Shown here piece by piece: positions 22,565 to 50,105 of a DNA stretch of 64,000 bases. The notes under the pieces are model-generated. The model made no database searches. It had not been told where the DNA came from and saw only the letters and a program-made list of their open reading frames with translations. Positions within the stretch are counted from its first letter, which is position 1. Each line of letters opens with the position of its first letter. The stretch lies in the IMG/VR virus record IMGVR_UViG_3300029989_000006. One strand, given 5' to 3'. The stretch is from a virus. Both the position numbers and the translations under genes were made by a program.

Positions 22565-25153
22565 ATGGGTTTAAGTAGGACTGGGCGTCAAAAACTTGGA
22601 GTAAAGAAATGGATGGAATTTGGTGGAAGAGGCACGTTTGTATGGGCTACTGGAGTTGGAAAAACTCGTGGAGCTATAATGGCAATTAAATCTTTTCTTA
22701 CAAAAAATAAAGGAAAGACTATAGTAGTTATAGTTCCAACTGAAGTTTTAAAACTTCAATGGATTAAAGAACTTGTTAAGTTTGAGTTATTCTTTGATGT
22801 ATCTATAGAGATTATTAATTCTGCTGTTAAAAAAACAGATAAGATTGATTTTATAATACTCGATGAGTGTCACAAATATGCCGGAAACCATTTTTATTCA
22901 ATCTTTACTCAAAGAACTCCGAAATTAATTCTGGGATTATCTGCTACTTTTGAAAGATTAGATGGTGCACAAATTTTATTGGAACAATATTGTCCAGTTT
23001 GCGATGTAATTACTTTACCTGAAGCAATTGCAAATAAATGGGTATCTCCATATAAGGAGTATAAAGTTTTAATAGAAGCACCAGATATTGAATTGTATAG
23101 AGAATATAATCAAAAATTTATCAATTCTTTCAGCTTCTTCAATTTTGATTTTGATACTGCAATGAAATGCTTGACTGATATTGTTTATAGAAGAACTTTT
23201 GCCAAAACAATGGGACTTCCACCAGGAGAGATTGACGCAGTTACTTTCACTTGGGGAAGAATGTTAAAAGCAAGAAAATATTTTGTTATGGATCATCCGA
23301 AAAAGGTGGAGATAACAAGAAAAATTCTTGATTATAGACCTAATAGTAAAGCAATTACATTTTCTCCAACAAAGAAACAGGCAGATGAAATCAAAAGAGG
23401 ATATGTAGTTCATTCTGGTAAAACAAAGAAAAAGAATGCAATAACAATTGAAGAATTTTCTAAGTTAAAAACTGGTGTATTACATGGAGTTAAAGGATTG
23501 AATGAAGGTACTGATATTGATGGTATAAATCTTGCAATTATCTTATGTAATAACTCATCTACTCAGGAAAAAACTCAAAGGGTAAAATTTTAAATTTATC
23601 CCATTATAATTTTTATATTTTTATAAAAACATATAATATACAAAGTCTTTGAATTATTTTGTGTAAATTTATAGTTATTAATTTAACTAATATTTATTAT
23701 GAATACATCAAAACTTTATGTATTAAAAGACCCGGAAACATTAGAAATTCGTTATGTCGGGATAACAATCAGAACTTTACAAAAAAGATTATCAGGACAT
23801 ATTTGCGATGCAAAATGCAGACCTGAACTTAATTACCATAAAATAAATTGGATAAAATCTATTTTAAAAAAGGGATTAAAACCTATTATTGAATTAGTTT
23901 TAGAATATGATTCTTTAGATTTAGCAAAACAAGCAGAAATGGATTATATTGCTAAATATAAACAAGAATATAAATTAACAAATTGTACTATTGGGGGAGA
24001 CCATTTAGGAGAAAGATCTCATTCTCGAGAATCTATACTTAAAAAATCTACAACAAGAGCTATTTGTCAATATAATATTTTTGGAGAATTACTTAGGGAA
24101 TTTGAAATTACTGAAGATGCTGCTAGATTTTTAAATTTATCATCTGCTTCTAAAATAACAATGTGCTGTAAGAAATTAAGACCTCATAGTCATGGTTATA
24201 TATGAAGATATAAAGGAGATGAATTAGGTGATATATCTAATATTGATGTCTTTTCTTTATCGTTTAATAGATTGGTTCAATTTGATTTAGAAGGTAATTA
24301 TATTGCAGATTATGATTCTTATTTAGCTGCATCTCTTATTGTTGGAGATCATTCTAAAGGAGGGAATATTGTTTCTGCATGTAAAGGAATACAAAAACAT
24401 TGTAAAGGATTTCAATGGAAACTAGAACCTAATTTTGAATATTTAGATGAATCATTTCTTTTAATAAATAATGATCCATCAATTAAAAAAAGTCTTATAG
24501 GTAAGTCTGGTAAAAAAGTAAATCAATATGATATAAACAATAATTTTTTAAAAACTTTTAATTCTATTTCAGATGCTTCAATAGAAGTATTAGGTACAAT
24601 TAATGGCAGAAAAAAAATAGTTGAATGTTGTGAAGATTTTGATTTAAAATATAAAAATTATAAATGGCAATACTGCCCACTAGAAGAGTAATTTTCTAGA
24701 AAAAATATTCCTGAATATCGGTGAATCCTTAACGTGTAATGACGATGGTAATACCGAGGCATAGGCTACACTAAAGTGTAGATTCAGCCGTAGAGACTTA
24801 AATGCAGGAACTCCTAGAAATAGGATGAAGATATAGTCCAGACCACAAACAATAAATCAGTAAGAATTCCATGGGAGGTGAGATATGCATGTCAAGTCCT
24901 ACAAGTCTGATGATTGGTGATGAAAATTATAGTGGTACGAGGTCGAGTGATTAGATTTGAAGAAAATAAAGAAGCTGAAATATTTACCTTAGTAATAAAA
25001 GGTACAGTAGAAGAAGCATGGTATAATACTTCCACAAATGGAAAGAATTATATAGAGATTACTGAAGAAGAATTAGATATAATTCTAGCAGGAGGTGAGT
25101 TGGAAAACTTGGAAAGAACTGCAGAAAAAAGTGATGTATTATTTAGGTTATAA
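22565..25153 (+). CDS. SF2 (DExH) helicase, spliced: join(22565..23583,24940..25153)
   Basis: ATGVGKT, DECH, SAT, EGTD; splicing restores motif VI QRVGRVIR. Confidence 0.88.
23584..24939 (+). mobile_element. group I intron in SF2 helicase, endonuclease ORF in P1 loop
   Basis: 5' exon ends in U (agggt) pairing with gccc at 24675-24678; core elements aatatcggtgaa, aataccgag, gtagagact, aagatatagtcc; terminal G. Confidence 0.88.
23699..24691 (+). CDS. intron-encoded GIY-YIG-like homing endonuclease with NUMOD1 repeats (TGA=Trp at 24203)
   Basis: LYVL...RYVG; GYI[TGA]RY aligns with repeats GFQWKL and NYKWQY; 330 aa if TGA read through. Confidence 0.88.
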
Positions 25154-25419
25154 TTATGACAGTACAAGAATTAATTGATGAATTGCAATTAGTAGATGAT
25201 AAAACTATGGAAGTTTTAGTATATAATTGTTCAGATGGTGAGAATATGGTTATTGAAAATATTGATGTTTTAGATGGCCATGTTGATTTAAATATGGAAT
25301 ATTAGATCAAGTTTACTTATAGATAATTTTTATTAACAATATGAATTACCCAATTTAGTTAAATATCCCATAACGGATTAATTACCCAAAGTAAGTAAGT
25401 GGTTCAAAATACAGCATAA

Positions 25420-26034
25420 ATGCAACATTTTGAACTATCTCTAAATGAAGAGATTAATGTTTACATTAACAGTGGTATGACTCCTACTGAACTTTTTATT
25501 CTAAGGTTGCTATTTTTGGCGGCTGATGGAGATCAACGATATTTAATTAATTATATATCAAATATCTCTGATGGTAAGAAAATCTTAAGACAAGTTTTAG
25601 AATCATTAAAAGTAAAAAAAGTCATAAACTCCACCTTTAACATTCCTAAAGAAGGTGAAGCTTTAAATTTTAAGAATATTCCTTTTAATAAGGTAACTCT
25701 TAAAACATACATTAGGGAATCCAATGAATTAGGTAAAGAATTTTTCGATAATTATCCCATGTTTGTATCAATTAATGGGAAAATGTGTAGTTTAAGAAAT
25801 TTTACAAAAGGAAATTTTCAATCATTAGAACAGTTTTGTATTCATTATTCTGCACAAATTAAAAATTGTGGCGTAACTCATGAACGTATAATGGCTGCAG
25901 TTACCTTTGGAAGGGAAAATAATTTAATCCATTATACTATTTTAGAATTTATTGCCTCTCAGAAATGGATAGAATTAGAACACATAAAAAATTCTGACAA
26001 TATTAATGGCTATAACAACATGGAGTTATTATAA
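25420..26034 (+). CDS. hypothetical protein of replication module (possible initiator/loader)
   Basis: 204 aa ORF upstream of DnaB; EFFDNYP motif. Confidence 0.6.
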   Translation: MQHFELSLNEEINVYINSGMTPTELFILRLLFLAADGDQRYLINYISNISDGKKILRQVLESLKVKKVINSTFNIPKEGEALNFKNIPFNKVTLKTYIRESNELGKEFFDNYPMFVSINGKMCSLRNFTKGNFQSLEQFCIHYSAQIKNCGVTHERIMAAVTFGRENNLIHYTILEFIASQKWIELEHIKNSDNINGYNNMELL

Positions 26035-26036
26035 AT

Positions 26037-27179
26037 ATGAAAAAATTAACAACAGAAGAATTTATAGATAAAGCAATTAAAATACATAGTAGTACTTATG
26101 ATTATTCAAAAGTTGTATATCAAAATACTAAAACTGCAGTTAATATAATTTGTCAGAAACATGGAGAATTTTTACAAAATCCTGTAATACATTTAGGAGG
26201 TTCAGGATGTCCTAAATGTTGAGGAAATCGATGCACATCAAAAGAATCTTTCATAGAAAAAAGTAACATTATACATAAAAACAAATATGACTACTCAAAA
26301 GTGATTTATTTAGGAAGTAAGGAAAAAGTATGTATAATTTGTTTAGAACATGGAGATTTCTGACAAACTACTAATAATCATTTAAAGGGAAAAGGTTGTC
26401 CTGTATGTGGTAGATTAAAATGTGATCTAGCAAGAATTAAATCAAAAGATTCTTTTATTGATGATTGCCACATAATTCATAATTATAAGTATGATTACAC
26501 TTTAGTAAACTATAAGACTAGAAAAGATAAAATTAAAATTGTCTGCCCTATTCATGGAGAGTTTATACAAGAAGCCAGTAGTCATTTAGCAGGACATGGT
26601 TGTCCTTTATGTAGCTGAGAAATTTTATCTGAAGATAGGGCTTTCTCTTGGGAGTTTGTTAAAGAACAGTGTAAGGAAATTCATAAAGGTTTATATAGTT
26701 ATCCTAATCAAGAATATAAAAATAGTAGATCTAAGATTGAAATTATCTGTAAAAATCATGGTGTATTTTTACAATCAATCACGAATCACCTACAGGGACA
26801 AGGTTGCCCTATTTGTAGATCTTCTAAAGGAGAACTATTGATTCACAACTGATTGAAAGAAAATAATATTCCTTTTAGAACTCAATTTGAATTAATTACA
26901 ACTGAAATTGCTAGAAATACTAATTTGATGAAGATTGATTTCTTTGTTAAATTTAATAATAAACAGTATTTTATAGAGTTTGATGGGATTCAGCATTTTC
27001 AATATGTCCCTATTTTTCATAAAGGAGGAATTATTGATTTTGAAAAAGAACAGAGAAGGGATAAAATTTTAAATGAATTTTGTGAATTGCATAAAGATAA
27101 AATAACTTTAGTTAGATTCAATTATAAACAAAATAATGAAGAAATAATTAAAGAATTAAATAAAATATTTATAAATTAA
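26037..27179 (+). CDS. putative free-standing endonuclease: four zinc-finger-like repeats plus C-terminal Vsr/PD-(D/E)xK-like domain (TGA=Trp x4)
   Basis: Repeats YDYS..IIC..HG.F.Q...HL.G.GCP.C; SKGE..I, IDF, IEFDG.QHF; one frame with TGA at 26220, 26361, 26616, 26850; 380 aa. Confidence 0.88.
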
Positions 27180-28258
27180 TGTCGGTAACACAATTATTTG
27201 AAAATATTCAAAAAGGTAGGCGAGGAAATAATATTGGTATTAGTACTGGTTTACCTAAATTAGATTCTATTATATATGGAATACAACGTAAATACTTATA
27301 TGTAATTGCAGCCGATCAAGGTGGAGGTAAGACTTCCTTTGCTCTGGATGTATTTGTTTATAATTTATTTAAAAATAAAGAAAACCATGCTATAAATATC
27401 CTTTATTATTCTTTTGAAATGGCTGGTGATGTATTATATGCAAAACTTTTATCTAGATATATTTATGATACATTTAATAAAGTTATCACCTATGAAGAGA
27501 TTCTCTCTTTGACTTTTCCAATATCTGATGAAAATTTCATTTATATAGAAAAATCTAAAGATTGGTTGTTGGAACTTCAAAAATGTTTTACCATATATGA
27601 TAAGCCTTTATCTCCACCAGCTATATATGCTACTTGTAAAGGATGGCTAAGTAATTTTGGCACATTTGAACAAGTTGGAGACCATAAAGAAAATTATATT
27701 GAACATGATCCAACTTCCTATAAAATAGCTTTAATAGATCATATAAGACTAATTTCTGGCAATGATGCAGTAAAAACTAAAATAGATTTAGTATGTGATT
27801 ATTTTGTATATTTTAGAAATAAGTGTAATATGACTGGTGTTTTAATACAGCAGATTAATAGAAATTCTAAAAGTGTAGAAAGACGTCAGGGAGGATATGA
27901 ACTACTTCAATTAGATGATTTAGCTGATTCTTCGGGACCAGCACAATCCGCAGAAGTAATTATTATGCTTTATTACCCTTACAGAGAAAAAGTATCTTCA
28001 TGTGAAGGTTTTCCTATAAAAAATGTGTTAAAACACAAAGGAAGAATTATTCAAATTAATAAGAATAGATTTGGTAGATCAGATTTAAATATCGGCAGTG
28101 TATTTCATGGAGAGATTGGTATGTTTATTGAGCTTCCAAAACCCTCTGAAATTGCAGATTATGAACCATATCTAAATTTAATGACAACAGATATAGTTAA
28201 ATCAAAAGAAATAATAAGAGAAGATGATAAAGAAGAAAACAATATATTTAAGTTATAA
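27179..28258 (+). CDS. DnaB-like replicative helicase
   Basis: ISTGLPKLD, GGGKT, SFEM, IDHI, QINR, KNRFG. Confidence 0.9.
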   Translation: MSVTQLFENIQKGRRGNNIGISTGLPKLDSIIYGIQRKYLYVIAADQGGGKTSFALDVFVYNLFKNKENHAINILYYSFEMAGDVLYAKLLSRYIYDTFNKVITYEEILSLTFPISDENFIYIEKSKDWLLELQKCFTIYDKPLSPPAIYATCKGWLSNFGTFEQVGDHKENYIEHDPTSYKIALIDHIRLISGNDAVKTKIDLVCDYFVYFRNKCNMTGVLIQQINRNSKSVERRQGGYELLQLDDLADSSGPAQSAEVIIMLYYPYREKVSSCEGFPIKNVLKHKGRIIQINKNRFGRSDLNIGSVFHGEIGMFIELPKPSEIADYEPYLNLMTTDIVKSKEIIREDDKEENNIFKL

Positions 28259-28261
28259 AAT

Positions 28262-29896
28262 ATGGCGGAATTAGGCGCAATAGTTGGTGAAGCTGGATCT
28301 GGTAAATCAACTAGTTTAAGAAATTTAGACCCCACAAGAACATTTATTATTAATGTTGCAGGAAAGAATCTTCCTATTAAAGGTTTTAAAAAGAATTTCA
28401 AAGCATTGGTTCAAGATCCTGGATCTAAAGAATTTGTTGGAAATTTATATAATACTAGCAATGTTGATAAAATTATCCAAGTAATAAAGTTGGTCAGTGC
28501 AAAGATGCCTCAAATTAAACAAATTATTATTGATGATAGTCAATATTTAATGGCATTTGAAGCAATGGATAGAGCTACTGAGAAGGGGTGAATAAACATG
28601 CCCAAACCAATCTAACTGCGGGGATAACCTTAGAGTCTTTTTAACCAAACAATAGTAGTAATACATATTGTGGCTTTCAGTAATGATGAAAGGTATGGTA
28701 AAATCAAAAAGAATTGGTCAATTCGCATCCAAGTTTCCAAATTAAATTTGGAAAAAGGTTCAACGACTATCTCCGTGAAGGAGAGTACATTAAGATTATT
28801 TATAATCTTTTTGGAAACGGTTGGGATTTTTATAAAAATTATTCGCTATCTTTGTAAATTATAATTTATTAAAATAGCATATGGAAAAAATTAAAGGAAA
28901 AAGTAAAATGCCAGAATATACACAATGGAAATCTATGAAATCCAGGTGTTATTCACCGTCGGCAACAAAAGGAAAGTATAAAGAGAATAATATTCAGGTT
29001 TGTCCTGAATGGATGAATTCTTTTGAGACTTTTTATTTAGATTTAGGTAATTGTCCAGAAGGATTTACTTTAGAAAGACTTGATAATCTCAAGGATTATT
29101 CTAAAGAGAATTGCATTTGGGCAAATAGAACTACACAAAGTAAAAATAGAGAAGATTTTAATGATATAGTTACCTATAATGGGAAAACTATGGTATTAAA
29201 AGATTGGGCTAAAGAATTTGATATTAAGTACACGACCTTATATCAGAGAATTTACAGAAGTGGTTTATCTTTTGAACAAGCTATACAAAAAGATCCATTT
29301 AAGAAATTAATAACTATTGGAGAAGAGTCTAAAACTCTTAAACAATGGTGTGAATTTTATAATATGGAGTTTGAGTTAGTTAACAATAGGGTATCTAAAC
29401 ATAAATGGGCTCCTCTTGAAGCTTTAACTATTCCAAAAGGAATAAAAAGAAGTAAGAATTAAGATATAGTCTGAACTTTATAGAAATATAAAGAATTGTA
29501 CATTATGTACATAATAACAAAATTGATGAAAAATTTACTCAAATGGCTCAACATTTTTATTCTATACTTAAAGAAGCAATGAATGCTCGTGAAGATCTTA
29601 AGGTTTTCATTTTAGCACATTCTGAAAATATAGGTGATGTTTTAAATCCTTCTTATAAGATTAAAACTCTTGGTAAGATGATTGATAATATGATTACAGT
29701 AGAGGGATTATTTACCTATGTATTATTTACCTGTAAAAGAATGACAGATGAAGGTATATTGGAATATAAATTTATCACTAATTCAGATGGTACAAATACT
29801 GCAAAAACACCAATGGGATGTTTTTCTGAATTATACATAGATAATGATTTACAATATGTTTTTGATCAGATTGATCAATATAATAGTGGAGAATAG
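28262..29896 (+). CDS. AAA_24/Sak4-like P-loop ATPase, spliced: join(28262..28589,29526..29896)
   Basis: GEAGSGKS, IIIDD; splicing gives EKGYEKFTQMAQH; TAKTPMG. Confidence 0.87.
28847..28854 (+). promoter_or_regulatory. Bacteroidota-type -7 promoter box
   Basis: TATCTTTG about 26 nt upstream of the intron ORF. Confidence 0.55.
28881..29462 (+). CDS. intron-encoded HNH-type homing endonuclease
   Basis: W.SMKSRC, VCPEW, TLERLDN..DYSKENCIWA....Q..N; no internal TGA. Confidence 0.85.
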   Translation: MEKIKGKSKMPEYTQWKSMKSRCYSPSATKGKYKENNIQVCPEWMNSFETFYLDLGNCPEGFTLERLDNLKDYSKENCIWANRTTQSKNREDFNDIVTYNGKTMVLKDWAKEFDIKYTTLYQRIYRSGLSFEQAIQKDPFKKLITIGEESKTLKQWCEFYNMEFELVNNRVSKHKWAPLEALTIPKGIKRSKN

Positions 29897-29898
29897 AA

Positions 29899-30459
29899 AT
29901 GATTAAAGGTGTTACAGTAACTTTTAACTTTGAAACAGAAACATCAGTTGTTACTGATGTAAAATGTTCTGTTGATGGAATGGTTAAGAAAACAAGAGCT
30001 ACAACAAAGAAATCTCATGTAGTCGAAGAAATGGCTTCGGAAAGTATAATTACTTTAGAAGAAAATAAACTATGCTTTAATAATAAAGCAGTTGCTGAAA
30101 TGGAACTGGTTTACGAGGATAGGATTGTTATTATATTTGAACCAGAAGGTCCAAAAAAGAATAAGATATTGATTCCCACAATTGGTAAAGATACTTCTTT
30201 CGACCAACCGGGATCTGGAAATAAGCTTACTAAAACAAATTCAATTGGGTATAAAGGAAAACAAAATGCTGTGCTGGCTGAGTTTGGAACTGAATTTACC
30301 CTAGAACCTTTTAAAGAAGGAATTTGGAAGTTAATTTCTAAAAATGGTGTAGAGAAAACTCTACAAGAAAAAATTGAGATTGTTGAAAAAGAAGAACCTA
30401 TAGTTATTATAGATGCAGATGAAACAGTACAAATAGATGAATTTGCATTTAATCTTTAA
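29899..30459 (+). CDS. hypothetical protein
   Basis: 186 aa ORF. Confidence 0.7.
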   Translation: MIKGVTVTFNFETETSVVTDVKCSVDGMVKKTRATTKKSHVVEEMASESIITLEENKLCFNNKAVAEMELVYEDRIVIIFEPEGPKKNKILIPTIGKDTSFDQPGSGNKLTKTNSIGYKGKQNAVLAEFGTEFTLEPFKEGIWKLISKNGVEKTLQEKIEIVEKEEPIVIIDADETVQIDEFAFNL

Positions 30460-30470
30460 TATATAATAAT

Positions 30471-31193
30471 ATGAGTGGTTTTTCATTCGGAGCAACAGCT
30501 GGCGCATCACAGAGCACAGCTAAACCAAAATTAGTTGGAAATAGTTTACACGTTGTTAAATTTGACGAATGTGTTTCAGATGATATCGTTGGGGTTAAAG
30601 ATCCCACAATTACATATAAAGTTTTAAAGCTTAGATTCTCTAATGATGATGGAGCTTTTGAACACACAGTTTTTGAACCAAAAGCTGAAGATTTTGCAAG
30701 AAAAGAAAATGAGATAACAGATAAGAATGGTAATAAACAAAAGATTCCTCAACCTTCAAATGTAGAATCTATGATGCTTTTATTTAAGCATGTTATTGAC
30801 GTTGTTAATCCTACAGTTGCAGGACAAATTGATAGAGAAGAAAAGAATCTTTCTGCACCTTCTTGGGATGTATTAAGAACATTGGTTATTTCTATTTTAA
30901 CTCCTGGAAAAGGAACTAAAACTACCATTAAATTATTGAAAAATAAAAATGGAGAAGCAGTTTTTCCTGGATTCTTTGCAGGATTAACTAAAGAAGGTAA
31001 AGCTTATGTCAGAAATAATTTTATTGGTGATAAAGTAGCATTTAGTGCTTATGAAGTTGATAGAATTAAAAATGAAGCAAATGCTATTGTAACCAAAACT
31101 AATAATTTTGCAGGAAATTCTACATCTGATTTTACTATTGATACTCCTAATGGTGAAGCTTTAGATATGAATTTTGAAGTAACAGGATTGTAA
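30471..31193 (+). CDS. putative single-stranded DNA-binding protein
   Basis: Between recombination ATPase and primase; beta-rich N-terminus, acidic tail. Confidence 0.5.
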   Translation: MSGFSFGATAGASQSTAKPKLVGNSLHVVKFDECVSDDIVGVKDPTITYKVLKLRFSNDDGAFEHTVFEPKAEDFARKENEITDKNGNKQKIPQPSNVESMMLLFKHVIDVVNPTVAGQIDREEKNLSAPSWDVLRTLVISILTPGKGTKTTIKLLKNKNGEAVFPGFFAGLTKEGKAYVRNNFIGDKVAFSAYEVDRIKNEANAIVTKTNNFAGNSTSDFTIDTPNGEALDMNFEVTGL

Positions 31194-31222
31194 AAAATAT
31201 TTTGGAGTAAAACAATTTATTT

Positions 31223-32260: not shown

Positions 32261-32270
32261 GGTATTTTAA

Positions 32271-32576: not shown

Positions 32577-32584
32577 GATTAATT

Positions 32585-33082: not shown

Positions 33083-33091
33083 TAAATAAGT

Positions 33092-35589: not shown

Positions 35590-35713
35590 TAACTCTAATT
35601 TTTATATTAATAAATTCTTATTGAGTTTTTATTAATATAATGAGTTTTAAATATTAATTTTATTACAAACTCTAATTAATTACATTTTAAGCAATTTTAT
35701 AAAAAATATTGTG

Positions 35714-40602: not shown

Positions 40603-40880
40603 TGAAGATAATTAAAGTCATATATGACAGTAATTGTAAGTTTATTTTAGATATAATAAATAATTTACCTAATAAAAGAATCTTTATTGAGACTTATAAT
40701 TATGAGAGTAAGGCTGAACAAAAAACTGCAAGAGGAATTTTAACTCGTTTTGGAACTAAGAATTTACCATTAATAGTTTTTGAAGATGAGAATTTAGTAG
40801 AATATAACGCTATTTGGAGTGAAAGAAATCCAAATTGGGAAGAAGAAATTAATAAAATACTTAATGATGAAAACTCTTAA
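40602..40880 (+). CDS. thioredoxin/glutaredoxin-like fold protein (no CxxC)
   Basis: SNCK...FGTKNLPLIVF; adjacent to RNR. Confidence 0.45.
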   Translation: MKIIKVIYDSNCKFILDIINNLPNKRIFIETYNYESKAEQKTARGILTRFGTKNLPLIVFEDENLVEYNAIWSERNPNWEEEINKILNDENS

Positions 40881-41052
40881 AGGTTATTTTTATATTAATA
40901 CAGGTTATATAGGTTCTCAAAGAGAAGAATCCTTTAATATTACAGTAGATGACAGTGTGTCAGGTGATTCTATATTAGAAGAAATGTTTGATAATTTTAT
41001 GTATAATATAGATAAAGGATGGATAATTGAAGAAGAAAATATAATTGATTAA
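40864..41052 (+). CDS. hypothetical protein
   Basis: Short ORF in operon. Confidence 0.5.
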   Translation: MMKTLKGYFYINTGYIGSQREESFNITVDDSVSGDSILEEMFDNFMYNIDKGWIIEEENIID

Positions 41053-41053
41053 T

Positions 41054-43600
41054 ATGGAAGAATACTTTAAAAATGATGAACTAGCATATGATGCTTGGAG
41101 AAGCAAGTATCAATTAAATAATGAGACATTAGAGGAATTTTTTATTAGAATTGCTAGAGAATTTGATAGATTAGATAACTTTCCTCAATGTTTAAAACTT
41201 GATGAAGATAAATTTAAAAAATTATCTCCTTATGGTCAATCTAGAATTAAGGAGGATAAATACGAATTGTTTTTAGGCTTATTTAAAGATTTTAAATATA
41301 TTATTCCTGGTGGATCTGTATTAGCTGGAATCGGTGGTACTAAACCTGTTTCTTTATCAAATTGTTTTGTATTAGAAACAGATGATTCTATTGAACCGAT
41401 TTTTGATACTGCTAAAGCAATGGCCCAGATTTATAAAAGAAGAGGTGGTGTAGGAGTAGATTTATCTTCATTAAGACCACGTGGCGCAGGAGTAAACAAT
41501 GCTGCAAATACAACAAGTGGTATAGTTCCATTTATGGAATTATATAGCCAAACTACTAATACTATTGGACAAGAAGGTAGACGTGGTGCGTTAATGCTTT
41601 CTGTTGATATTAATCATCCAGATAGTCCTGAATTTATTACAAGTAAACAGAATTTAACTAAAATTACAGGAGCTAATATCTCTGTTAAGTTAAATAATGA
41701 ATTTAAAAAGGCTGTTGAAAATAATAAGGATTATATTTTAAGATGGCCCACAAATGTAGATTTATCTACTTATCCTGACGATGATTTAACACTTATTCCT
41801 TATAATAAATTAATTATGTTATGGGAAGGATTGTATGTTAAAAAAGTTAAAGCTTTAGAAGTATGGAATTCTATAATTGAATGTGCTTGGAATACTGCTG
41901 AACCTGGTATACTATTTTGGGATAACATTATTGATAATGATCCTGCAAGTGTATATCCTGAGTTTAAAGCAGTATCAACCAATCCCTGTGGTGAAATACC
42001 CCTTTCTCCTTATGATTCTTGTAGATTAATTGCAACTAATTTATTTAGTTTAGTATATAAACCATTTACTACGGAAGCCTATCTTAATTTAGAAAAGGCA
42101 TATGAAATATTTTATGAAGCTCAGATTATTGCTGATATCTTAGTTGATTTGGAAATAGAATATGTTCAAAGGATTATTGATAAAACTGAAGGTGCTGAAA
42201 AGGAACTTTGGATTAAGATCAAAGAAATTGGACAAAAAGGTCGTAGAACCGGAACTGGTTTAACTGGTTTAGGTGATATGTTTGCGGCTCTTGATGTTCC
42301 TTATGGTGATGAAACTACTTTACATACTATAATGAGAACTAAAATGGAGGCTGAATTTGATGCATCTATTGACTTAGCAATTATTAATGACCCATTTCCA
42401 GCATATTCTGTAAGTAATGAATGGGATAATTATGATGAAACTGATATTGGGCCAACTATGGGAAATAATCCATTTTATGAATATTTCCAATGGAATTTTC
42501 CTAATCAATTTAAAAGAATGATTCAAAATGGTCGTAGAAACATTTCAATCTCAACAATTGCTCCAACTGGAACTATTAGTTTAATGGCTGGAGTTACAAG
42601 TGGTGGAGAACCCTTATATGATTATTATTATAGAAGAAGAAGAAAATGCAATCCTGGAGAAACTCCTGATTTTACTGATCAAAATGGGATAGGGTTTATG
42701 GAATATAATGTAATCCATCCTAAATTTAAAGAATGGGCACATATTATTGCAGGACCTATAGTTCCTCTTGATAATATGACTACTGGTGAATTAAATATTC
42801 TTGTAAAACAATCTCCTTGGTATAATCAAATAGCTGAAAAAATTGATCCTTCTGTAAGAATTAAAACTCAATCTATTTTACAACAGTACACAACTCATTC
42901 TATTAGTTCTACTATTAACTTAGCTGAATCTACCACAAAAGAACAAATTGATTTTTTGTATAGAGAAGCTTGGAATAGTAATCTTAAAGGAGTTACAGTA
43001 TACCGTGACAATTGTAGAACTGGAATTTTACTTAAAAGTGAAGCTTCTAAACCAATTATCGAAGAAAGACCTACTGAAATAGAATGTAAAGTTGAGCATT
43101 TTAAGAATGAAAAAAAGGATTGGATTGCTTTTGTTGGACTTCTTAATGATTTTCCATATGAGATATTTACTGGTCCAAAAGATTTAGATGTATTTCCTAT
43201 TCCTAGTAGTGTTATTTCTGGTAAAATTATAAAAGTACGTCAAGAGGATGGAACTTCAAGATATGATTTTAGGTATGTAGATTCTTATGGATATACAAAT
43301 ACCTTAGGAGGATTATCAAGAGTATTCGATAAAGAACATTGGAATTACGGTAGATTATTGTCTGCATTGCTAAGACAAAATATGGAAATTGTAAAACTTG
43401 TAAAAGTTGTAGAAGGACTTATTTTCAGTAATAAAGGTATGAATACTTGGAAAGCTGGTGTTATAAGAGCATTGAAAACATTTATTCCTGATGGAACAAA
43501 AGTTCATGGTGAAATCTGTGAAAATTGTGGTGGTACAAATGTAATTTATAATAATGGATGTAAAGAATGTAGAGACTGTGGCAGTAGCAAATGTGGATAA
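41054..43600 (+). CDS. nrdJ: class II (adenosylcobalamin-dependent) ribonucleotide reductase
   Basis: SNCF, RRGA, TNPCGE, IAPTGTIS, KGVTVYR, C-terminal zinc ribbon; no small subunit gene nearby. Confidence 0.92.
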   Translation: MEEYFKNDELAYDAWRSKYQLNNETLEEFFIRIAREFDRLDNFPQCLKLDEDKFKKLSPYGQSRIKEDKYELFLGLFKDFKYIIPGGSVLAGIGGTKPVSLSNCFVLETDDSIEPIFDTAKAMAQIYKRRGGVGVDLSSLRPRGAGVNNAANTTSGIVPFMELYSQTTNTIGQEGRRGALMLSVDINHPDSPEFITSKQNLTKITGANISVKLNNEFKKAVENNKDYILRWPTNVDLSTYPDDDLTLIPYNKLIMLWEGLYVKKVKALEVWNSIIECAWNTAEPGILFWDNIIDNDPASVYPEFKAVSTNPCGEIPLSPYDSCRLIATNLFSLVYKPFTTEAYLNLEKAYEIFYEAQIIADILVDLEIEYVQRIIDKTEGAEKELWIKIKEIGQKGRRTGTGLTGLGDMFAALDVPYGDETTLHTIMRTKMEAEFDASIDLAIINDPFPAYSVSNEWDNYDETDIGPTMGNNPFYEYFQWNFPNQFKRMIQNGRRNISISTIAPTGTISLMAGVTSGGEPLYDYYYRRRRKCNPGETPDFTDQNGIGFMEYNVIHPKFKEWAHIIAGPIVPLDNMTTGELNILVKQSPWYNQIAEKIDPSVRIKTQSILQQYTTHSISSTINLAESTTKEQIDFLYREAWNSNLKGVTVYRDNCRTGILLKSEASKPIIEERPTEIECKVEHFKNEKKDWIAFVGLLNDFPYEIFTGPKDLDVFPIPSSVISGKIIKVRQEDGTSRYDFRYVDSYGYTNTLGGLSRVFDKEHWNYGRLLSALLRQNMEIVKLVKVVEGLIFSNKGMNTWKAGVIRALKTFIPDGTKVHGEICENCGGTNVIYNNGCKECRDCGSSKCG

Positions 43601-44014
43601 ATGACTAATGAACAAATTTTAGAAGGTAATAAACTAATTGCTGAATTTATGGGTTATGAAATACCAAAACAAACTCATAAACTAGATTGGATCTATTATA
43701 AAGGAGTATTACAAAATATGCTATTTCATTATTCTTGGGATTGGTTAATTCCAGTAGTTGGAAAGATTGAATCTATCTATGATAAGCATCATGGACATTT
43801 TGGAGTACATATTTCAAGTAATACTTGTTCAATACAAGGCACTAATTTATGGAAATCTTTAGAAATGGAAGTGGATAATAATGAATCTATAACAAGACCA
43901 TATGGCTATGTTTATTGTTCAGATTCAAATGTTATATTTGATACTAAAATAGAAAGTACCTGGTATAATGTAGTAGAATTTATTAAGTGGTACAATAATT
44001 ACAAAGAAAAATGA
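43601..44014 (+). CDS. phage hypothetical protein
   Basis: NKLIAEFMG...SWDWLIPVV.KIE motif. Confidence 0.7.
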   Translation: MTNEQILEGNKLIAEFMGYEIPKQTHKLDWIYYKGVLQNMLFHYSWDWLIPVVGKIESIYDKHHGHFGVHISSNTCSIQGTNLWKSLEMEVDNNESITRPYGYVYCSDSNVIFDTKIESTWYNVVEFIKWYNNYKEK

Positions 44015-44301
44015 GTAAATATATTTATATCCAAGCGGATACTAATGACGGTGATTACATTAGTGAATTAAATGAAATAGATGAAGAAGATTTAGTATCA
44101 ATTCTTCCTATTATTCAACAAGTTGCTAATAATTTTGGAGATTTTGGAATGGGAGAATTTGGAGATTCTGCTGATAAACTTTATGGAGAAATAGATAATT
44201 ATGATTTATTTAGACAATTTGTTCCCAGAGGAGAATATGGAATTCATACAATTGTCGAAATAAGAATTTTGGAAGTAACAAGTGATAAAAAATTATTATA
44301 A
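44011..44301 (+). CDS. hypothetical protein
   Basis: DTNDGDY...GIHTI motif. Confidence 0.65.
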   Translation: MSKYIYIQADTNDGDYISELNEIDEEDLVSILPIIQQVANNFGDFGMGEFGDSADKLYGEIDNYDLFRQFVPRGEYGIHTIVEIRILEVTSDKKLL

Positions 44302-44501
44302 TGGTAGTATTTTTTGAAGAAAGAGATTTACTTTCTTTTGGTTTATTTATGGTGTCAGATTTTAGGAAAACAGCTTATATTAATTCTATGAAAGAAACTC
44401 CTGCATTAGTTCCACAAGTTTTAAGTGAATGTGGGCAGGATGATTTAGAATTATGGATGTATTATAAACAAAATACAGAAAAGGGACAAGAAGATGCTTA
44501 A
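44301..44501 (+). CDS. hypothetical protein
   Basis: Coupled ORF. Confidence 0.6.
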   Translation: MVVFFEERDLLSFGLFMVSDFRKTAYINSMKETPALVPQVLSECGQDDLELWMYYKQNTEKGQEDA

Positions 44502-44940
44502 TGTTCAGGTAATAAATAAATCATATAATGATTTACCAGAATATTCTACAAAAGGATCTGCTGGAATGGATGTAAGAGCAAATGTAATAAATGAAGTTGG
44601 TTATATTACTCTTTATCCTAATGAAACAAAGTTAATCCCAACTGGATTGTTTTTTGCAGTACCAGAAGGATATGAAATGCAAATTAGACCTAGAAGTGGT
44701 CTTGCATTGAAAAATGAAATTACAGTTCTAAATACTCCTGGCACTTTAGATAGTGATTATATTGGTGAGTTGGGAATTATTTTACATAATTTCGGGAAAA
44801 GCACATTCTTTATAAATAATGGTGATAGAATTGCTCAGATAGTGTTCAATAAATACGAATCCGCAGTATTAGAATCTGTTTCACAATTAAATGAAACTAA
44901 TAGAGGAACTAGTGGATTTGGATCAACTGGTATTAAATAG
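44494..44940 (+). CDS. dut: dUTPase (trimeric)
   Basis: AGMD, RSGLA, GTLDSDYIGE, GDRIAQ, RG..GFGSTG. Confidence 0.95.
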   Translation: MLNVQVINKSYNDLPEYSTKGSAGMDVRANVINEVGYITLYPNETKLIPTGLFFAVPEGYEMQIRPRSGLALKNEITVLNTPGTLDSDYIGELGIILHNFGKSTFFINNGDRIAQIVFNKYESAVLESVSQLNETNRGTSGFGSTGIK

Positions 44941-44941
44941 T

Positions 44942-45283
44942 ATGAAAATAGTACTAAGAAATGAATATTCAGTAACTATGCCAAAGGTGTTTATTACTGA
45001 AATTGATTTTAATATAGAAGAATTTTTAAAAGATTCAGAAATACATGATGAAGATGATTTAAGATACAGATTAGAGGATTTAATATGGGATGCTAATTAT
45101 CAATATTTTGATAATGGGGATGAAGACATAGAAAATGATGATTTAGAAACTTTCATTGAAAATATAAATGAATTAGTTGAAAAATATTCATATTTAATTA
45201 TCACTGAGTTAAAAGAAACATGTTGTAATAGCGCTACTGAAGAATCCAATTTTTGTAATATTTGTGGTAAAAAATTAAAGTAA
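44942..45283 (+). CDS. acidic protein with C-terminal zinc ribbon
   Basis: CC...FCNICG. Confidence 0.62.
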   Translation: MKIVLRNEYSVTMPKVFITEIDFNIEEFLKDSEIHDEDDLRYRLEDLIWDANYQYFDNGDEDIENDDLETFIENINELVEKYSYLIITELKETCCNSATEESNFCNICGKKLK

Positions 45284-45660
45284 TGACAAGGTTAGAAGGA
45301 TTAATTGAGGTTTTAAAAGAGAATGATTTTGACAATGAAGTAATAGATGAACTTATTTTAAAATATTATTCAACACAAGATGATATTACATTTTATTCAG
45401 AAGGATATACTTTTAAAGTATATACAAATGATGAAATGGAAGATAATTTATATGAGATTGCTGATGTAATTTATTGTGAGGTTATATCAGATATGCAAAG
45501 AACTACCAGAAATATAACATATAGTGATTATGTTCTTGAAGAATTAAAGCGTGATAATATAATAGATAATATTTCTAAAGACTTAAATTATTTTGAAGAA
45601 AAAGAAGATTGTTTATTTTTAGGTGAAACTGGTAGATATACAGTTTGTGAGTTAGTATAA
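45283..45660 (+). CDS. acidic hypothetical protein
   Basis: Coupled ORF. Confidence 0.62.
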   Translation: MTRLEGLIEVLKENDFDNEVIDELILKYYSTQDDITFYSEGYTFKVYTNDEMEDNLYEIADVIYCEVISDMQRTTRNITYSDYVLEELKRDNIIDNISKDLNYFEEKEDCLFLGETGRYTVCELV

Positions 45661-46142
45661 TGGAAGAAAAAGAGTTTAAGAAATATAGATATTTAGGTTA
45701 TTGGTATCCAGGAGTTCCAGAACACTGGAAACCAATAGTCCTAAATATGTTAAAAGAAATGGATGAATATATTAAACCTAAGTTAGTTCCTAGGTTTATA
45801 TATAATTGGGTTGCATGGTTTGCAAGAAGAGGAAGTGTTGTAAATGTTTCAAATAATTTTTGGTATAAAATTTCATATTATTTAAATAAAGGGAATTTTA
45901 TTACTGATATTAAAGATAAATATGCAACTTTAAGAGTTTATGGTTATTTTGATAATTCTGTTGATGAAATAATTGAAAAAGCTGAAAAACTTTGTGAGAA
46001 TACTTGTGAACGATGTGGTGGAACTGAAGAAGTAAAAGATATAGCAATTAAAGGATGGGTAACCAATCTTTGTATTAATTGTAGAACTGAATTAAAGCCA
46101 AAAAAGAATGATAGTAATATCGGAAATAGTACTAGTAAGTAG
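45660..46142 (+). CDS. phage protein with C-terminal zinc finger
   Basis: IKDKYATLRVY...CERCG...LCINC. Confidence 0.7.
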   Translation: MEEKEFKKYRYLGYWYPGVPEHWKPIVLNMLKEMDEYIKPKLVPRFIYNWVAWFARRGSVVNVSNNFWYKISYYLNKGNFITDIKDKYATLRVYGYFDNSVDEIIEKAEKLCENTCERCGGTEEVKDIAIKGWVTNLCINCRTELKPKKNDSNIGNSTSK

Positions 46143-47262
46143 AAATGCACGTGATAAAGTTCAGGTTGCAATTACATCATTAAGTCAGAATGGTAATTCT
46201 TTTATTATTAATAGAAAAACTGGTCAGTATAAAGGAAAAATGTCAGTTCAACCTGAGTTAGTTATTGAAAAAGGTAAAGCAAAAAGGTCTGTAATTCAGC
46301 AAGCAGAGTTAGAATTTAATAGTATTATTAATAAATATTGTGATAAAGGTTATAAAAAACTACATAATTTAACTGATACTAAATTTGAAGAAATAGAAGA
46401 TTCTGAACTTAATGAATTAGTTCCAACCATTAAAAGTGATGATAATGGAAACAATAAACCTATGTTAGCTAAATCATTTGATGATTGTCAGAATTCTGTA
46501 TTGGAAAAACCAATGTATTGTTCTCGAAAACTTAATGGAGTTCGCTGTCTTATTAGGCAGGGTAGTACTAGTAGTAGAGGTGGTAAAGATTATGATTGTT
46601 CTACTATAAAAATTATGGAAGAACTTGAAGATTTCTTTATTGATCATCCAGATATAGTTCTGGATGGTGAATTATATATTCATGGGGAGTTTCTACAAAG
46701 AATTTCTGGTATTGCAAGATTAAAAACTTGGGAATCTAGGTGTGATAGATTACAATATTGGATTTATGATATAGCTTCTGAAACTGAAACTTTTGAAGAA
46801 AGATTAGAAACTTTAAAAGAAATGCAGGAGATATTTAAATCTGCTACATATGTTAAAGTTTTAGAGCACGTACTTACTGAGGGTTGGGATAAAGTTAAAA
46901 CTTTACATGATAAATGGGTGGCTGAGGGATTTGAAGGATTAGTCGCAAGAAAACCTGATAAGGTTTATCAATTTGGAAAGAGAAATTCTACAATGATTAA
47001 GTTAAAAATGACTAAAGATGATGAGTTTGAAATTATTGATTATAAAGATGGGTTAAGACCTGAAGATTTTGTATTCGTATGTCAAACTAAATCAGGTAAA
47101 GTTTTTGAAGCTAAACCATTAGGAAGTAGAGAATTAAAAGCAGAATATTTAGAGAATATTGATAATATTATTGGTAAAATGGGAACTGTTAGATACTTTG
47201 AATTATCAAAGGATGGAATTCCATTACAGACAAGATTATTAGCAATCAGGGATTACGAATAA
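46108..47262 (+). CDS. ATP-dependent DNA ligase
   Basis: PMLA, KLNGVR, LDGELY, EGLV, KLK. Confidence 0.92.
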   Translation: MIVISEIVLVSRNARDKVQVAITSLSQNGNSFIINRKTGQYKGKMSVQPELVIEKGKAKRSVIQQAELEFNSIINKYCDKGYKKLHNLTDTKFEEIEDSELNELVPTIKSDDNGNNKPMLAKSFDDCQNSVLEKPMYCSRKLNGVRCLIRQGSTSSRGGKDYDCSTIKIMEELEDFFIDHPDIVLDGELYIHGEFLQRISGIARLKTWESRCDRLQYWIYDIASETETFEERLETLKEMQEIFKSATYVKVLEHVLTEGWDKVKTLHDKWVAEGFEGLVARKPDKVYQFGKRNSTMIKLKMTKDDEFEIIDYKDGLRPEDFVFVCQTKSGKVFEAKPLGSRELKAEYLENIDNIIGKMGTVRYFELSKDGIPLQTRLLAIRDYE

Positions 47263-47272
47263 AAATTAAATT

Positions 47273-47485
47273 ATGAAATTTAGAAAAGTAGTTGAGACTT
47301 ATATCTTAAATGAAGAATTATTAGATATGGTAAATGAAGTTTTAGAATGTGATGATAAAGAACCTTTAACAACTTTGGAAAATTTAACAATTGAGAATTA
47401 CATTGAAATCTTTGGAGAAGATTGGTTTTATGAGGAATTTGAATATGCAAGTGATGATAATTCAGTAATTACGATTGTTGAATAA
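47273..47485 (+). CDS. small acidic protein
   Basis: ORF. Confidence 0.6.
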   Translation: MKFRKVVETYILNEELLDMVNEVLECDDKEPLTTLENLTIENYIEIFGEDWFYEEFEYASDDNSVITIVE

Positions 47486-47491
47486 AAATGA

Positions 47492-47740
47492 ATGACTGCA
47501 AACGAATTCAATAAGAAATATGCAGACTTTATAGTTAAGCGACATCCTGGATGTTGTTTAATTAATAAGTCTGTTATTGATTATTTAGACAGAGAATTTG
47601 AGGAATTGATTAAAATCCCAGGTTTTCAATTCCACGAGATTAAACCAAGGTTTAATTTCTTTAGATTAACAGGAACAGATTTATCTCAAGAAAAGATTTG
47701 GGAGATTGAGAATAAATTATATGAATTACATAAACAATGA
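47492..47740 (+). CDS. hypothetical protein
   Basis: ORF; ATGA overlap. Confidence 0.6.
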   Translation: MTANEFNKKYADFIVKRHPGCCLINKSVIDYLDREFEELIKIPGFQFHEIKPRFNFFRLTGTDLSQEKIWEIENKLYELHKQ

Positions 47741-48246
47741 AATTAATAATAAAAGAAAAATCAAAATCACAACTTAGGGAAGTTTATGTTATTGAAGTTG
47801 ATTTTATGTTTGGGGACGCAGATGGTAATGAAACTTTAACTTTTGAGTTTTCTGAAGCAGAGTATGCAGATTTATATTTTGCAGATGAAGTGCATTCATT
47901 TATTAAATCTATATTAGAAGCAATTGATATAGATCGTCTAGGAAGAGGTGGTTTTGAATCTTCAAGAGAATGTATAAGATGGTATGGTTTAGGTCAGGAT
48001 TATACATGGAAAAATAATAAAATGGCATATGTTGAAGTACATAATCCAGTTTATCAGTGGAATAGATTTTGTGAAGATGATTATGATATTGAAGAATTTG
48101 AAGAGTTAGAATTTAGATCGGATAGATTTTTATATAGCATCCCAACTTACTCTGATAGATGGTATGGTTCATATGAATCTATTACCATTTCATATTATGA
48201 TGATCAAGGATATAAATATTTAGTAGAAATTGATGAGAAAAATTAG
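47737..48246 (+). CDS. acidic hypothetical protein
   Basis: 169 aa ORF. Confidence 0.65.
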   Translation: MKLIIKEKSKSQLREVYVIEVDFMFGDADGNETLTFEFSEAEYADLYFADEVHSFIKSILEAIDIDRLGRGGFESSRECIRWYGLGQDYTWKNNKMAYVEVHNPVYQWNRFCEDDYDIEEFEELEFRSDRFLYSIPTYSDRWYGSYESITISYYDDQGYKYLVEIDEKN

Positions 48247-49321
48247 TGCAGAAATAATTGCGGACAGTACAATACATGGCCATAGATTGATTACTTATAT
48301 GTTGACTTATCCAAGATTTATACATGCAGAACTGATGACACATCGTGTGTTTTCAAGAAATTCGGCTAGTAGCAGAGCCATACCATTTGAGAAAATGATA
48401 AAATCTGTTGGAGAAGATCCGTTTATTCCTATTGCATGGCAAAAAGATCATAAAGGTATGCAGGGAGCACAATATATTACTTCTCCACAGGGAATAGAAC
48501 ATTGTAATAATTTATGGGAAGTAGCAGCAGAACAAGCTGTTAAATCAGCTAAGATGATAAGAATAATGGATGGAGAAATTGAGTATCCCGGTACAATTGA
48601 GGAAGTATTTTCTGATTTTGAAGATGAGGATGAGATTTTAATTACAAAACAACTTTGTAATCGTCTTTTAGAACCGTTTTTATGGCACACTGTAATAGTA
48701 ACATCAACTGAATTTTCAAATTTCTTTGAATTAAGATGTCCTAAATATATTCAACATACTATAAACAAAGTAAACACTTTTTACAGTAAAAAAGATTATG
48801 AAAATAAGTATGGTAAACAAGATATATCTGAATTAGATTGGATTAAATCTAGTCAATCAGGAGCTGAAATACATATTCAAGCATTAGCGGAAGCTATGTG
48901 GAATGCTAAAAATGAATCTACTCCTAAAGAATTAAAAGAAGGTGAATGGCATATTCCTTTTGGAGATAAAATATCTGGAGATGTTACAAAATGGTTTTCA
49001 ACTATTGAAGATCAAGCATATTGGTTAGGAAAAGATATGACTAAGTTATTTCTTAAAGTAGCTGTTGCACGATGTGCTAGATTATCTTACATGACATTTG
49101 ATGGAGAAATAGATTATAAAAAAGATATTCAACTCCATGATACACTGTTAGCTAGTAAACACGCAAGCCCATTTGAACATGTAAGTCGAGGTTTAACTGA
49201 AGAAGAATATAACACATTAGGTAAAATGATATTAGATCCAGTTAAAGGTTATGTTTTTGAAAAAGGATGGGCTGATAATTTTAGAGGATTTATATCTTAT
49301 AGAAGAATTCTAAATTTCTAA
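48233..49321 (+). CDS. thyX: flavin-dependent thymidylate synthase
   Basis: ELMTHRVFSRNSASSRAIP, NRLLEPF, NFFELR, HASPFEH. Confidence 0.9.
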   Translation: MRKISAEIIADSTIHGHRLITYMLTYPRFIHAELMTHRVFSRNSASSRAIPFEKMIKSVGEDPFIPIAWQKDHKGMQGAQYITSPQGIEHCNNLWEVAAEQAVKSAKMIRIMDGEIEYPGTIEEVFSDFEDEDEILITKQLCNRLLEPFLWHTVIVTSTEFSNFFELRCPKYIQHTINKVNTFYSKKDYENKYGKQDISELDWIKSSQSGAEIHIQALAEAMWNAKNESTPKELKEGEWHIPFGDKISGDVTKWFSTIEDQAYWLGKDMTKLFLKVAVARCARLSYMTFDGEIDYKKDIQLHDTLLASKHASPFEHVSRGLTEEEYNTLGKMILDPVKGYVFEKGWADNFRGFISYRRILNF

Positions 49322-49352
49322 ATTTTAAAGGATTTATTAAAATTTTAATTAT

Positions 49353-49360
49353 TATCTTTG
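49353..49360 (+). promoter_or_regulatory. Bacteroidota-type -7 promoter box
   Basis: TATCTTTG 13 nt upstream of the GIY-YIG ORF. Confidence 0.55.
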
Positions 49361-49373
49361 CATATAACTTTAA

Positions 49374-50105
49374 ATGAAGAATATGTCAGGAATTTATAAA
49401 ATTTTAAATAAATCCAATAACAAATGTTATATTGGTAGTACAGTTAATTTCGGTGATAGAAAAAATTTACATTTTTCTAAATTAAAACGAGGAAAACATC
49501 ATTCAATTATTCTGCAAAGAGCATATGATAAATATGAAATAGATAGTTTTGAATTTATTATTTTAGAAGAGTGTGAAAATGAAAAACTTCTAGAAAGAGA
49601 ACAATGATATTTTGATAATTATAAACCAGAATATAATGTTGCAAAAGTTGCAGGAAATACACTAGGTGTTGCCTCTACAAGACGTATAGCTATAGTACAA
49701 TATGACTTAGATGGAAATCAAATAAAAATTTGGGATTGTTTAGAAGATATTAAAAAAGAATTAAATTTGGCTGCATCCTCAAAGATATCTGAATGTTGTA
49801 AATTAAAACGAAATAAAATTTATGGCTTTGTTTGAAGATATTTAGAGGATAATCCTGGATTTTCATTAAGTACAGTTAGAAAAGGTAAATGTATTGCTGA
49901 GATAGATTCTTGTGGAAATATTATTAATGTATGAGAAAGAATTATAGATTGTGCAAATGATATAGGAACATCTTCTGCAGCAATTTGTGATACTTTATCA
50001 GAAAAATCCCGAAGAAAAACAATATATAATAGAATGTTTAAAAGAATAGAAAAAGAAGAGTTAGAACAATATCGTTATTTAATAGAAAATAAAAATGATT
50101 GATAA
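49374..50105 (+). CDS. free-standing GIY-YIG homing endonuclease with NUMOD1 (TGA=Trp)
   Basis: GIYKI..YIGS; REQ[TGA]YFD..PEYN; GFV[TGA]RY; in-frame TGA at 49605, 49833, 49932, 50100, then TAA; 243 aa. Confidence 0.88.

Follow-up and report, generated by a model that had tools for sequence, protein, structure and literature searches.

The open reading frames (ORFs) of the T4 endonucleases I-TevI, I-TevII, I-TevIII and segB, like that of Aeh1 mobE, lie on early or middle messages that are polycistronic or contain introns, yet they are translated only late (PMC2988022). The block consists of hairpins that sequester the ribosome-binding site (RBS), combined with late promoters (Edgell, Gibb and Belfort 2010, PMC2988022). 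When I-TevI is translated too early, splicing suffers in the gene that hosts its intron; the published rationale for the delay is protection of splicing and of host-gene expression, and free-standing endonucleases of the T4 type are promoter-less cassettes that overlap their neighbours (PMC2988022). For the Agate phages, in which a group I intron endonuclease in an early gene prefers TGA, timing by means of the genetic code has been proposed (Borges et al., bioRxiv 10.1101/2021.08.26.457843). Here we analyse a 64,000-nucleotide stretch of viral DNA (IMG/VR record IMGVR_UViG_3300029989_000006; the whole stretch is hereafter the window), in which three endonuclease genes appear to need TGA to be read as tryptophan (Trp), within operons that otherwise use the standard code. 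That full-length translation of these nucleases would depend on the code is well supported. We also lean towards the reading that these late-coded endonucleases are carried on early messages and become whole only once an opal suppressor tRNA, tRNA(UCA), is active, which would delay their translation.

The window comprises bases 102614-166613 of one viral genome of 172,188 bp and 29% GC, which CheckV rates as complete and in which ~140 bp at one end recur near the other. Its PolA is nearest to those of crAss-like phages (34-38% identity), and the genome would fit a Zeta-type crAss-like gut phage in its size, its number of tRNAs, its use of opal suppression and the density of its introns; megablast of 24 kb against GenBank phages returned no match. 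Phages of the Zeta group have genomes of 145-192 kb, carry many tRNAs and rely on opal suppression chiefly for late genes (Yutin et al. 2021, PMC7886860; Lera phage, PMC12386605), and their forward replication arm is unusually dense in group I introns and homing endonucleases (PMC7886860; PMC12386605). TGA was noted in the intron ORFs of one Zeta-group PolB (Yutin et al., PMC7886860), and the homing endonucleases listed in Lera Table S1 are marked '-' in the suppression column (PMC12386605). These papers do not single out endonucleases as TGA-bearing genes in a standard-coded arm, nor do they discuss timing (PMC7886860, PMC12386605). GC skew and ORF maps divide the present genome into two arms, to which the following features belong:

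Genome ~64000-155300 (window 1-52700), plus strand: early arm, in which genes for replication and nucleotide metabolism lie along with most of the genome's 26 tRNAs.
Genome 155346, over the contig ends, to ~63870, minus strand: late arm, with giant ORFs that are open only with TGA as sense.
Window 52733..64000, minus strand: start of the late arm, with giant ORFs of 1533, 1179 and >1009 amino acids, whose in-frame TGA codons number 22, 6 and at least 10, respectively; these ORFs are our reference for the late code.
Window 23699..24691, plus strand: GIY-YIG endonuclease gene within an intron, coding for three NUMOD1-like modules and holding one TGA and three TGG.
Window 26037..27179, plus strand: free-standing endonuclease with four treble-clef zinc-ribbon repeats (DUF4379/DUF723) and a C-terminal domain of the Vsr/DUF559-like PD-(D/E)XK type.
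Window 49374..50105, plus strand: free-standing GIY-YIG/NUMOD1 endonuclease with one TGG, in the interval from a ThyX-like gene to an M15 peptidase gene.
Genome 60008-60081 (L004:8-81), minus strand, outside the window: opal suppressor tRNA(UCA), anticodon TCA.
Window 4383..4458, plus strand: phage tRNA-Trp(CCA).

By their Trp codons, the TGA-bearing nucleases of the early arm are quantitatively late genes. The rest of the plus arm outside the window holds three further credible TGA-bearing ORFs, again nucleases (HNH_2, HNH and PD-(D/E)XK_5), and a genome-wide count over all six gives 15 TGA and 5 TGG (75% TGA). The 145 other ORFs of the early arm have 0 TGA and 310 TGG (0% TGA; Fisher p ~5e-22 against the nucleases). 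For comparison, all 50 late-arm ORFs together have 183 TGA and 125 TGG (59% TGA), and the 28 of them that use TGA at all have 183 TGA and 55 TGG (77% TGA). Because the 145 comparison ORFs were called under code 11, independent support comes from ORF-by-ORF inspection, for which we went through all plus-strand ORFs of at least 60 amino acids that contain TGA under code 4. Apart from the nucleases, these were explained by a spurious N-terminal extension, by a true TGA stop with TAA or TAG a few codons on, or by intron sequence (window 28262-28615 and 24878-25153, plus strand); small candidates at genome 65-74 kb on the same strand were rejected, as they look spurious or non-coding or terminate at TGA. 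It is therefore true, as a preliminary description of this DNA had it, that only three ORFs in the window's standard-code region need TGA readthrough. In five of the six nucleases the first TGA falls before or inside the catalytic domain.

We take the genome to be that of a dual-code phage, whose late arm would read TGA as Trp through tRNA(UCA) and whose replication arm would keep the standard code with TGA as a stop. Coding density of the minus arm rises from 0.5-0.7 to ~1.0 when it is read under code 4, and the TGA codons of the late arm are spread over many ORFs, as counted above. TGA is the stop codon of 27 of the 145 early-arm ORFs, and a relative's homologue (L016 8290-9153) stops at TGA at matching length. 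A host-wide code 4 was ruled out by these TGA stops and by the early genes' exclusive use of TGG. Since tRNA(UCA) is only ~50% identical to the phage tRNA-Trp(CCA), we infer its charging with Trp from protein alignments.

The TGA codons occupy positions at which Trp is expected. The coordinates and in-frame TGAs of all three ORFs were as first described, and so was their placement at Trp-type positions. In the 49374 ORF, whose internal TGAs lie at 49605, 49833 and 49932 (a terminal TGA at 50100 is followed by TAA), position 154 is an invariant Trp among homologues; at positions 187 and 78, Trp is present in most or several homologues, the closest ones included, and the others have an aromatic residue. 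In the 26037 ORF, with TGAs at 26220, 26361, 26616 and 26850 and one TGG, the TGAs at positions 109 and 272 match a majority or invariant Trp among homologues, and that at position 194 matches Trp in the closest homologue. The sole in-frame TGA of the 23699 ORF (24203-24205, codon 169) encodes the Trp in the G-Y-I-W-R-Y sequence with which the first NUMOD1 module closes; the Trp of this G-aromatic-x-W-x-aromatic motif is TGG in both sister modules and in a paralogue (genome 63211-63870). As a control, 79 of 80 GIY-YIG homologues, mostly from standard-code viral contigs, are free of TGA over the region of the match.

These genes are also intact and under purifying selection downstream of their TGAs, with a ratio of nonsynonymous to synonymous divergence (dN/dS, omega) of 0.1-0.2. 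The Vsr-like domain of the 26037 ORF, which lies downstream of the TGAs, has an omega of 0.22 against its homologue in L019, and the TGAs at 109 and 272 are common to both. The 49374 gene has a copy in L022 that is 90% identical and retains each of its three TGAs; the two differ by a synonymous divergence (dS) of 0.64, with an omega of 0.10 overall and of 0.12-0.14 in the part downstream of the TGAs. A dN/dS comparison of this kind had been proposed in the preliminary description, and for both genes it points to purifying selection. The alternative here is simple decay, with the three ORFs as dying homing-endonuclease pseudogenes broken by nonsense mutations. Homing endonuclease genes do commonly degenerate once fixed, and TAA or TAG occurs in some of the distant GIY-YIG copies from other viral contigs (L094-L105). 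But the 15 in-frame nonsense codons of the six nucleases are TGA without exception, neither TAA nor TAG occurs and no frame is shifted, when decay would give ~30% TGA among nonsense hits (probability that all 15 are TGA, ~2-4e-8), and decay would account neither for the alignment of the TGAs with Trp nor for their retention, with low omega, at the dS reached by the L022 copy. TAA, TAG or frameshifts in the copies of relatives, which that description had named as the mark of decay, are not seen either; the copies are intact and keep the same TGAs. We regard decay as effectively refuted and give it almost no probability.

The 23699 ORF lies in an intron of a helicase gene, together with which it occupies the following positions:

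Window 22565..23583, plus strand: exon 1 of a superfamily 2 (SF2) helicase (ResIII/DEAD/Helicase_C, Pfam), standard code.
Window 23584..24939, plus strand: group-I-like intron of 1356 nt that breaks helicase motif VI, with bounds taken from the intron-less relatives L015-L018.
Window 24940..25153, plus strand: helicase exon 2.

L015-L018 are four relatives found through PolA. Removal of the intron yields a 410-amino-acid ORF without a stop, and the uninterrupted helicase of relatives L016-L018 has 408 amino acids; the helicase is intact in these three of the four, and the fourth has a different insertion at a different site. A T ends the 5' exon and a G ends the intron. No Rfam intron model matched region 23300-27400 at E <= 1, and none matched anywhere in the window at gathering score, so that we call the introns group-I-like. 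The GIY-YIG domain match of the 23699 ORF is marginal (E = 0.0026, 18.4 bits against a Pfam cut-off of 22.6); NUMOD1 is matched at E = 2.4e-13, with three modules in a six-frame search. In the 49374 ORF, GIY-YIG is matched above the Pfam cut-off (E = 2e-11) and the NUMOD1 match is weaker than in the 23699 ORF. Pfam and PHROGs assign GIY-YIG with NUMOD1 to both of these ORFs, and to the 26037 ORF the DUF4379/DUF723 zinc repeats together with a nuclease.

The 26037 ORF probably ends in a Vsr/DUF559-like PD-(D/E)XK nuclease fold. An AlphaFold model of the C-terminal domain has a predicted local distance difference test score (pLDDT) of 94.5, and its best Foldseek matches are all PD-(D/E)XK nucleases: AF1548, the R2 endonuclease domain, TnsA, Vsr 1cw0 and the DUF559 protein 3hrl. 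The match to Vsr 1cw0 has a template-modelling (TM) score of 0.58 and a probability of 0.99, with E-values of the fold matches of only 1e-3 to 6e-2. In an alignment with DUF559-bearing homologues, a D-F...E-x-D-G-x-Q-H motif shows invariant D, F, E, G, Q and H, and at least 90% of the sequences have the D of ExDG. The window's protein had no direct Pfam match to DUF559 or Vsr, giving a weak CoiA_nuc match only (E = 0.037), whereas its homologues P0020 and P0044 do match DUF559; a sequence search of the PDB with the C-terminal domain returned nothing meaningful. Every TGA of this gene had been described as preceding the catalytic domain. In fact the fourth falls in the first helix of the nuclease domain, although it is still upstream of the catalytic D..ExDGxQH motif.

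The 26037 ORF begins 2 nt past the upstream stop codon and overlaps the start of the DnaB-like gene that follows, and it is absent from L015-L018, where its two neighbours lie 3 nt apart. The gene is thus wedged into an operon with no room for a promoter of its own, and this tight packing argues for co-transcription with the replication genes.

The window's three nucleases appear from their sequences to be functional mobile homing-type elements. The helicase intron and the zinc-ribbon nuclease are missing from the four relatives, which have other endonuclease insertions at other sites; in L018, for instance, PolA (L018:3315-6689) is broken by two insertions of ~360 and 1016 nt, the larger of which contains an endonuclease-VII/HNH-like ORF (PHROG 3322, 1035) without any Trp codon. 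The L022 copy of the 49374 gene also follows a ThyX-like gene, and the gene downstream of it differs. Copies of endonucleases in different genomes are separated by a dS of 0.4-0.7, far below that of the DnaB gene flanking them, which is what horizontal spread predicts. Against L025 and L026, the DnaB-like gene at 27179-28258 has a dS of 1.1-1.3 and an HNH gene in the nearby intron at 28590-29525 (28881-29462) has a dS of 0.4-0.5, indicating that this intron probably spread horizontally among these phages in recent times.

The same use of TGA is found in relatives. In-frame TGA occurs in LAGLIDADG genes (2 TGA and 0 TGG in L015, 2 TGA and 2 TGG in L018, 3 TGA in L118), in GIY-YIG genes (1 TGA and 1 TGG in L016, 2 TGA and 0 TGG in L025) and in a DUF723/Vsr-type nuclease gene (3 TGA and 0 TGG in L019), and in every case the adjacent replication genes have no internal TGA. 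The comparison of endonucleases with their neighbours across recoded relatives, also put forward in the preliminary description, is thus positive in L015, L016, L018, L019, L025 and L118.

Not all endonucleases of this genome behave in this way, and one of the exceptions lies inside the interval first described (23699-50105):

Window 28590..29525, plus strand: group-I-like intron of 936 nt in an ATPase gene with exons at 28262-28589 and 29526-29896.
Window 28881..29462, plus strand: intron-borne HNH-type endonuclease (PHROG 3377, E = 2e-50), standard code, with 6 TGG and 0 TGA.
Genome 96637: an HNH gene, also standard-coded.
Around the suppressor tRNA, minus strand: three further standard-coded nuclease genes.

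Relatives L015 and L017 have an unbroken ATPase ORF of 231-232 amino acids, and the spliced ORF of the window has 232; the intron bounds are T|...G, and an apparent TGA at codon 110 of ORF 28262-28615 is a product of the exon-intron junction. A gathering-score Rfam scan of the window returned no match for this intron. In L016 and L025 the same ATPase gene has a different intron, with a GIY-YIG ORF, ~12 codons upstream. All six TGG codons of the HNH gene are kept in L025, L026 and L027 (dS 0.41-0.52, omega 0.08-0.17), and in L025 the standard-coded HNH gene adjoins the GIY-YIG intron ORF that uses TGA only. The retention of these TGG codons in four genomes indicates that the choice of Trp codon is under selection in at least one endonuclease family of the early arm.

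If the nucleases are timed by the code, their ORFs would ride on early or middle messages or in introns of early genes; ribosomes would terminate at the first TGA as long as tRNA(UCA) is lacking, and accumulation of the suppressor would then yield full-length enzymes. The preliminary description had proposed that the nucleases become full-length only after the code switch. What stands of this is that they are, on the sequence evidence, intact, selected and mobile genes that need TGA as Trp; that they are co-transcribed with early genes, that the suppressor appears late and that delay is of any benefit are steps that we infer. Signals that might have located promoters contributed little. The Bacteroidetes-type promoter box TAnnTTTG is not enriched (263 on both strands against ~294 expected) and so is unusable for calling endonuclease-specific promoters; one such box lies 21 nt upstream of the 49374 ORF. 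A sigma-70 scan of 22000-30000 gave fewer matches than shuffled sequence, and the nucleases are not bracketed by terminators. A hairpin of 80 nt predicted at window 23639-23718 (-15.1 kcal/mol; z = -3.1, a value reached by 3 of 200 shuffles) includes the start codon of the 23699 ORF; it may recall the RBS-sequestering hairpins of T4 or may simply be intron structure; the same RNA-helix test at the starts of the 26037 and 49374 ORFs found nothing above shuffles.

Several observations weigh against code-dependent delay. The TGA share of the nucleases is no higher than that of late genes (p = 0.24 and 0.79), and at the Trp sites of diverged copies six show a shared TGA, one a shared TGG and one a mixture, which fits neutral toggling; together these suggest that the TGAs may be tolerated and need not be a selected gate. 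The only TGA of the 23699 ORF is downstream of the catalytic domain, and an early product of 168 amino acids could therefore comprise the catalytic GIY-YIG part plus the larger share of one DNA-binding module. Five nuclease genes of the same genome, the intron-borne HNH among them, are strictly standard-coded, with 0 TGA and 15 TGG in total (chance under late-type usage, ~1e-9), so that delay is no general rule for selfish nucleases here. In TGA-recoded relatives, a plus-strand Phage_lysozyme2 gene, the last plus-strand gene before the late arm, carries one or two in-frame TGA (L112:7697-8404, L145:7805-8404, L154:2576-3181). Of the six nucleases, the evidence for mobility covers the window's three. 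The suppressor, finally, might be made early.

That nucleases in the standard-code region are late-coded, as had been proposed, thus holds for six genes and fails as a general rule: there are two coding classes of endonuclease. It is possible, though doubtful, that these are two translational classes kept side by side by selection on their Trp codons, with the code acting as a timer for each gene and as a barrier. The late-coded class would comprise GIY-YIG, LAGLIDADG, DUF723/Vsr and some HNH genes, and the standard-coded class would be typified by the PHROG-3377 HNH (dS ~0.5). Late-coded endonucleases would then be confined to phages that carry the suppressor. Across the lineage, late-coded plus-strand genes also extend beyond nucleases, as shown by the lysozyme genes and by an SLT transglycosylase gene beside the suppressor tRNA of this genome, matching a published link with lysis genes; in the window, the lysozyme counterpart (51979-52686, SLT domain) and the M15 peptidase gene (50095-50610) have no in-frame TGA.

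The most serious rival to code-dependent timing is that the TGAs are a passive by-product: the nucleases would matter, or have promoters of their own, only late, and AT-biased drift from TGG to TGA would be tolerated without forming a selected gate. The late-gene level of their TGA share and the states of the diverged copies are what this predicts, distant homologues in standard-code contigs have TGG at the same sites (a 57%-identical copy of the 49374 gene in a table-11 contig does so at two of the three), and the intron endonucleases of T4 do have late promoters of their own (PMC2988022). However, the zinc-ribbon nuclease has no intergenic room for a promoter, the standard-coded HNH gene holds all of its TGG codons in four genomes, and the physical consequence would be unchanged, as no full-length protein could be made without the suppressor. 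On balance we think a by-product unlikely, while granting it real weight. Far less probable is a legacy of import, in which the genes would be recent arrivals from a donor with TGA as Trp in all of its genes, and their TGAs would be baggage that says nothing about timing. Mobility of the elements is demonstrated, and the closest homologues of two of the nucleases are likewise TGA-coded (L019, L020, L022), but the TGA-coded homologues in L019 and L025 also sit among neighbours free of internal TGA, which makes the source pool one of dual-code phages and not of fully code-4 genomes. Purifying selection on the resident copies, and a trait common to six genes of four or five nuclease folds, speak against import as well.

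We give equally little credence to the idea that the suppressor is active throughout infection, with the early genes avoiding TGA for some other reason (such as inefficient decoding in abundant proteins) and the nucleases made at a low level at all times. Avoidance of TGA is indeed specific to genes and unrelated to strand in part of the genome, as 22 late-strand ORFs also lack it, including a run of four genes with 36 TGG, and there are signs that readthrough matters to early genes. Among the 26 TGA-terminated early genes that could be scored, the nearest backup TAA or TAG lies at a median of 6 codons, compared with 8-11 behind genes terminated by TAA or TAG, and falls within 10 codons in 85% as against 51% (Mann-Whitney p = 0.027). 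These backup stops suggest that early messages are still being translated once the suppressor is present. But a TGA stop in 27 early ORFs would be costly under constant suppression, and the suppressor is encoded on the minus strand, apart from the tRNA cluster of the plus arm. Delayed, code-dependent translation from early messages is the reading that we prefer.

A few further features of the genome were noted. The four late-strand genes just mentioned are successive large ORFs on the minus strand (L002:12676-18598, genome 32676-38598) that have 0 TGA; with 22 of the 50 minus-strand ORFs free of TGA, recoding is gene-specific inside the late arm as well, and the TGA-free ORFs may encode abundant or earlier-made proteins. 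The tRNA(UCA) gene itself belongs to a minus-strand cluster without TGA, has standard-coded HNH and GIY-YIG genes on its flanks, and adjoins a plus-strand SLT transglycosylase gene (L004:555-1520) with six in-frame TGA and one TGG. At window 3699-3776, Rfam calls a tRNA just over its gathering score (32 bits) where ARAGORN gives none.

The idea that a change of code could time endonuclease expression is not new, having been proposed by Borges et al.; the present case is a clear instance across several families. As in Agate, a phage that reads TGA as Trp on a standard-code host carries an endonuclease within an early gene that prefers TGA over TGG. The Agate case concerns one family of intron endonucleases in another clade, whereas here six genes of four or five folds are involved, some borne by introns and some free-standing. 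Unlike the Agate report, the present analysis has standard-coded endonucleases in the same genome as a contrast, and it shows purifying selection downstream of the TGAs. The contrasting standard-coded class is the useful addition. The Agate study was reportedly published in Nat Microbiol in 2022. Where T4 uses hairpins and late promoters, the block here would be termination at a recoded stop, with the same delayed outcome.

A practical consequence is that annotation of such genomes under a single code either breaks the nuclease genes or wrongly extends the 27 early genes. The notion of the code switch as a timer draws on sequence analysis and on metaproteomic confirmation of the codes themselves, and this genome offers an unusually clean natural example of it: in a standard-coded arm of 91 kb, late coding is confined to six nucleases that differ in fold, and the standard-coded endonucleases nearby serve as internal controls. 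A carrier has to be protected from harm by its homing endonucleases, and a recoded stop would be a second, very simple way of delaying them.

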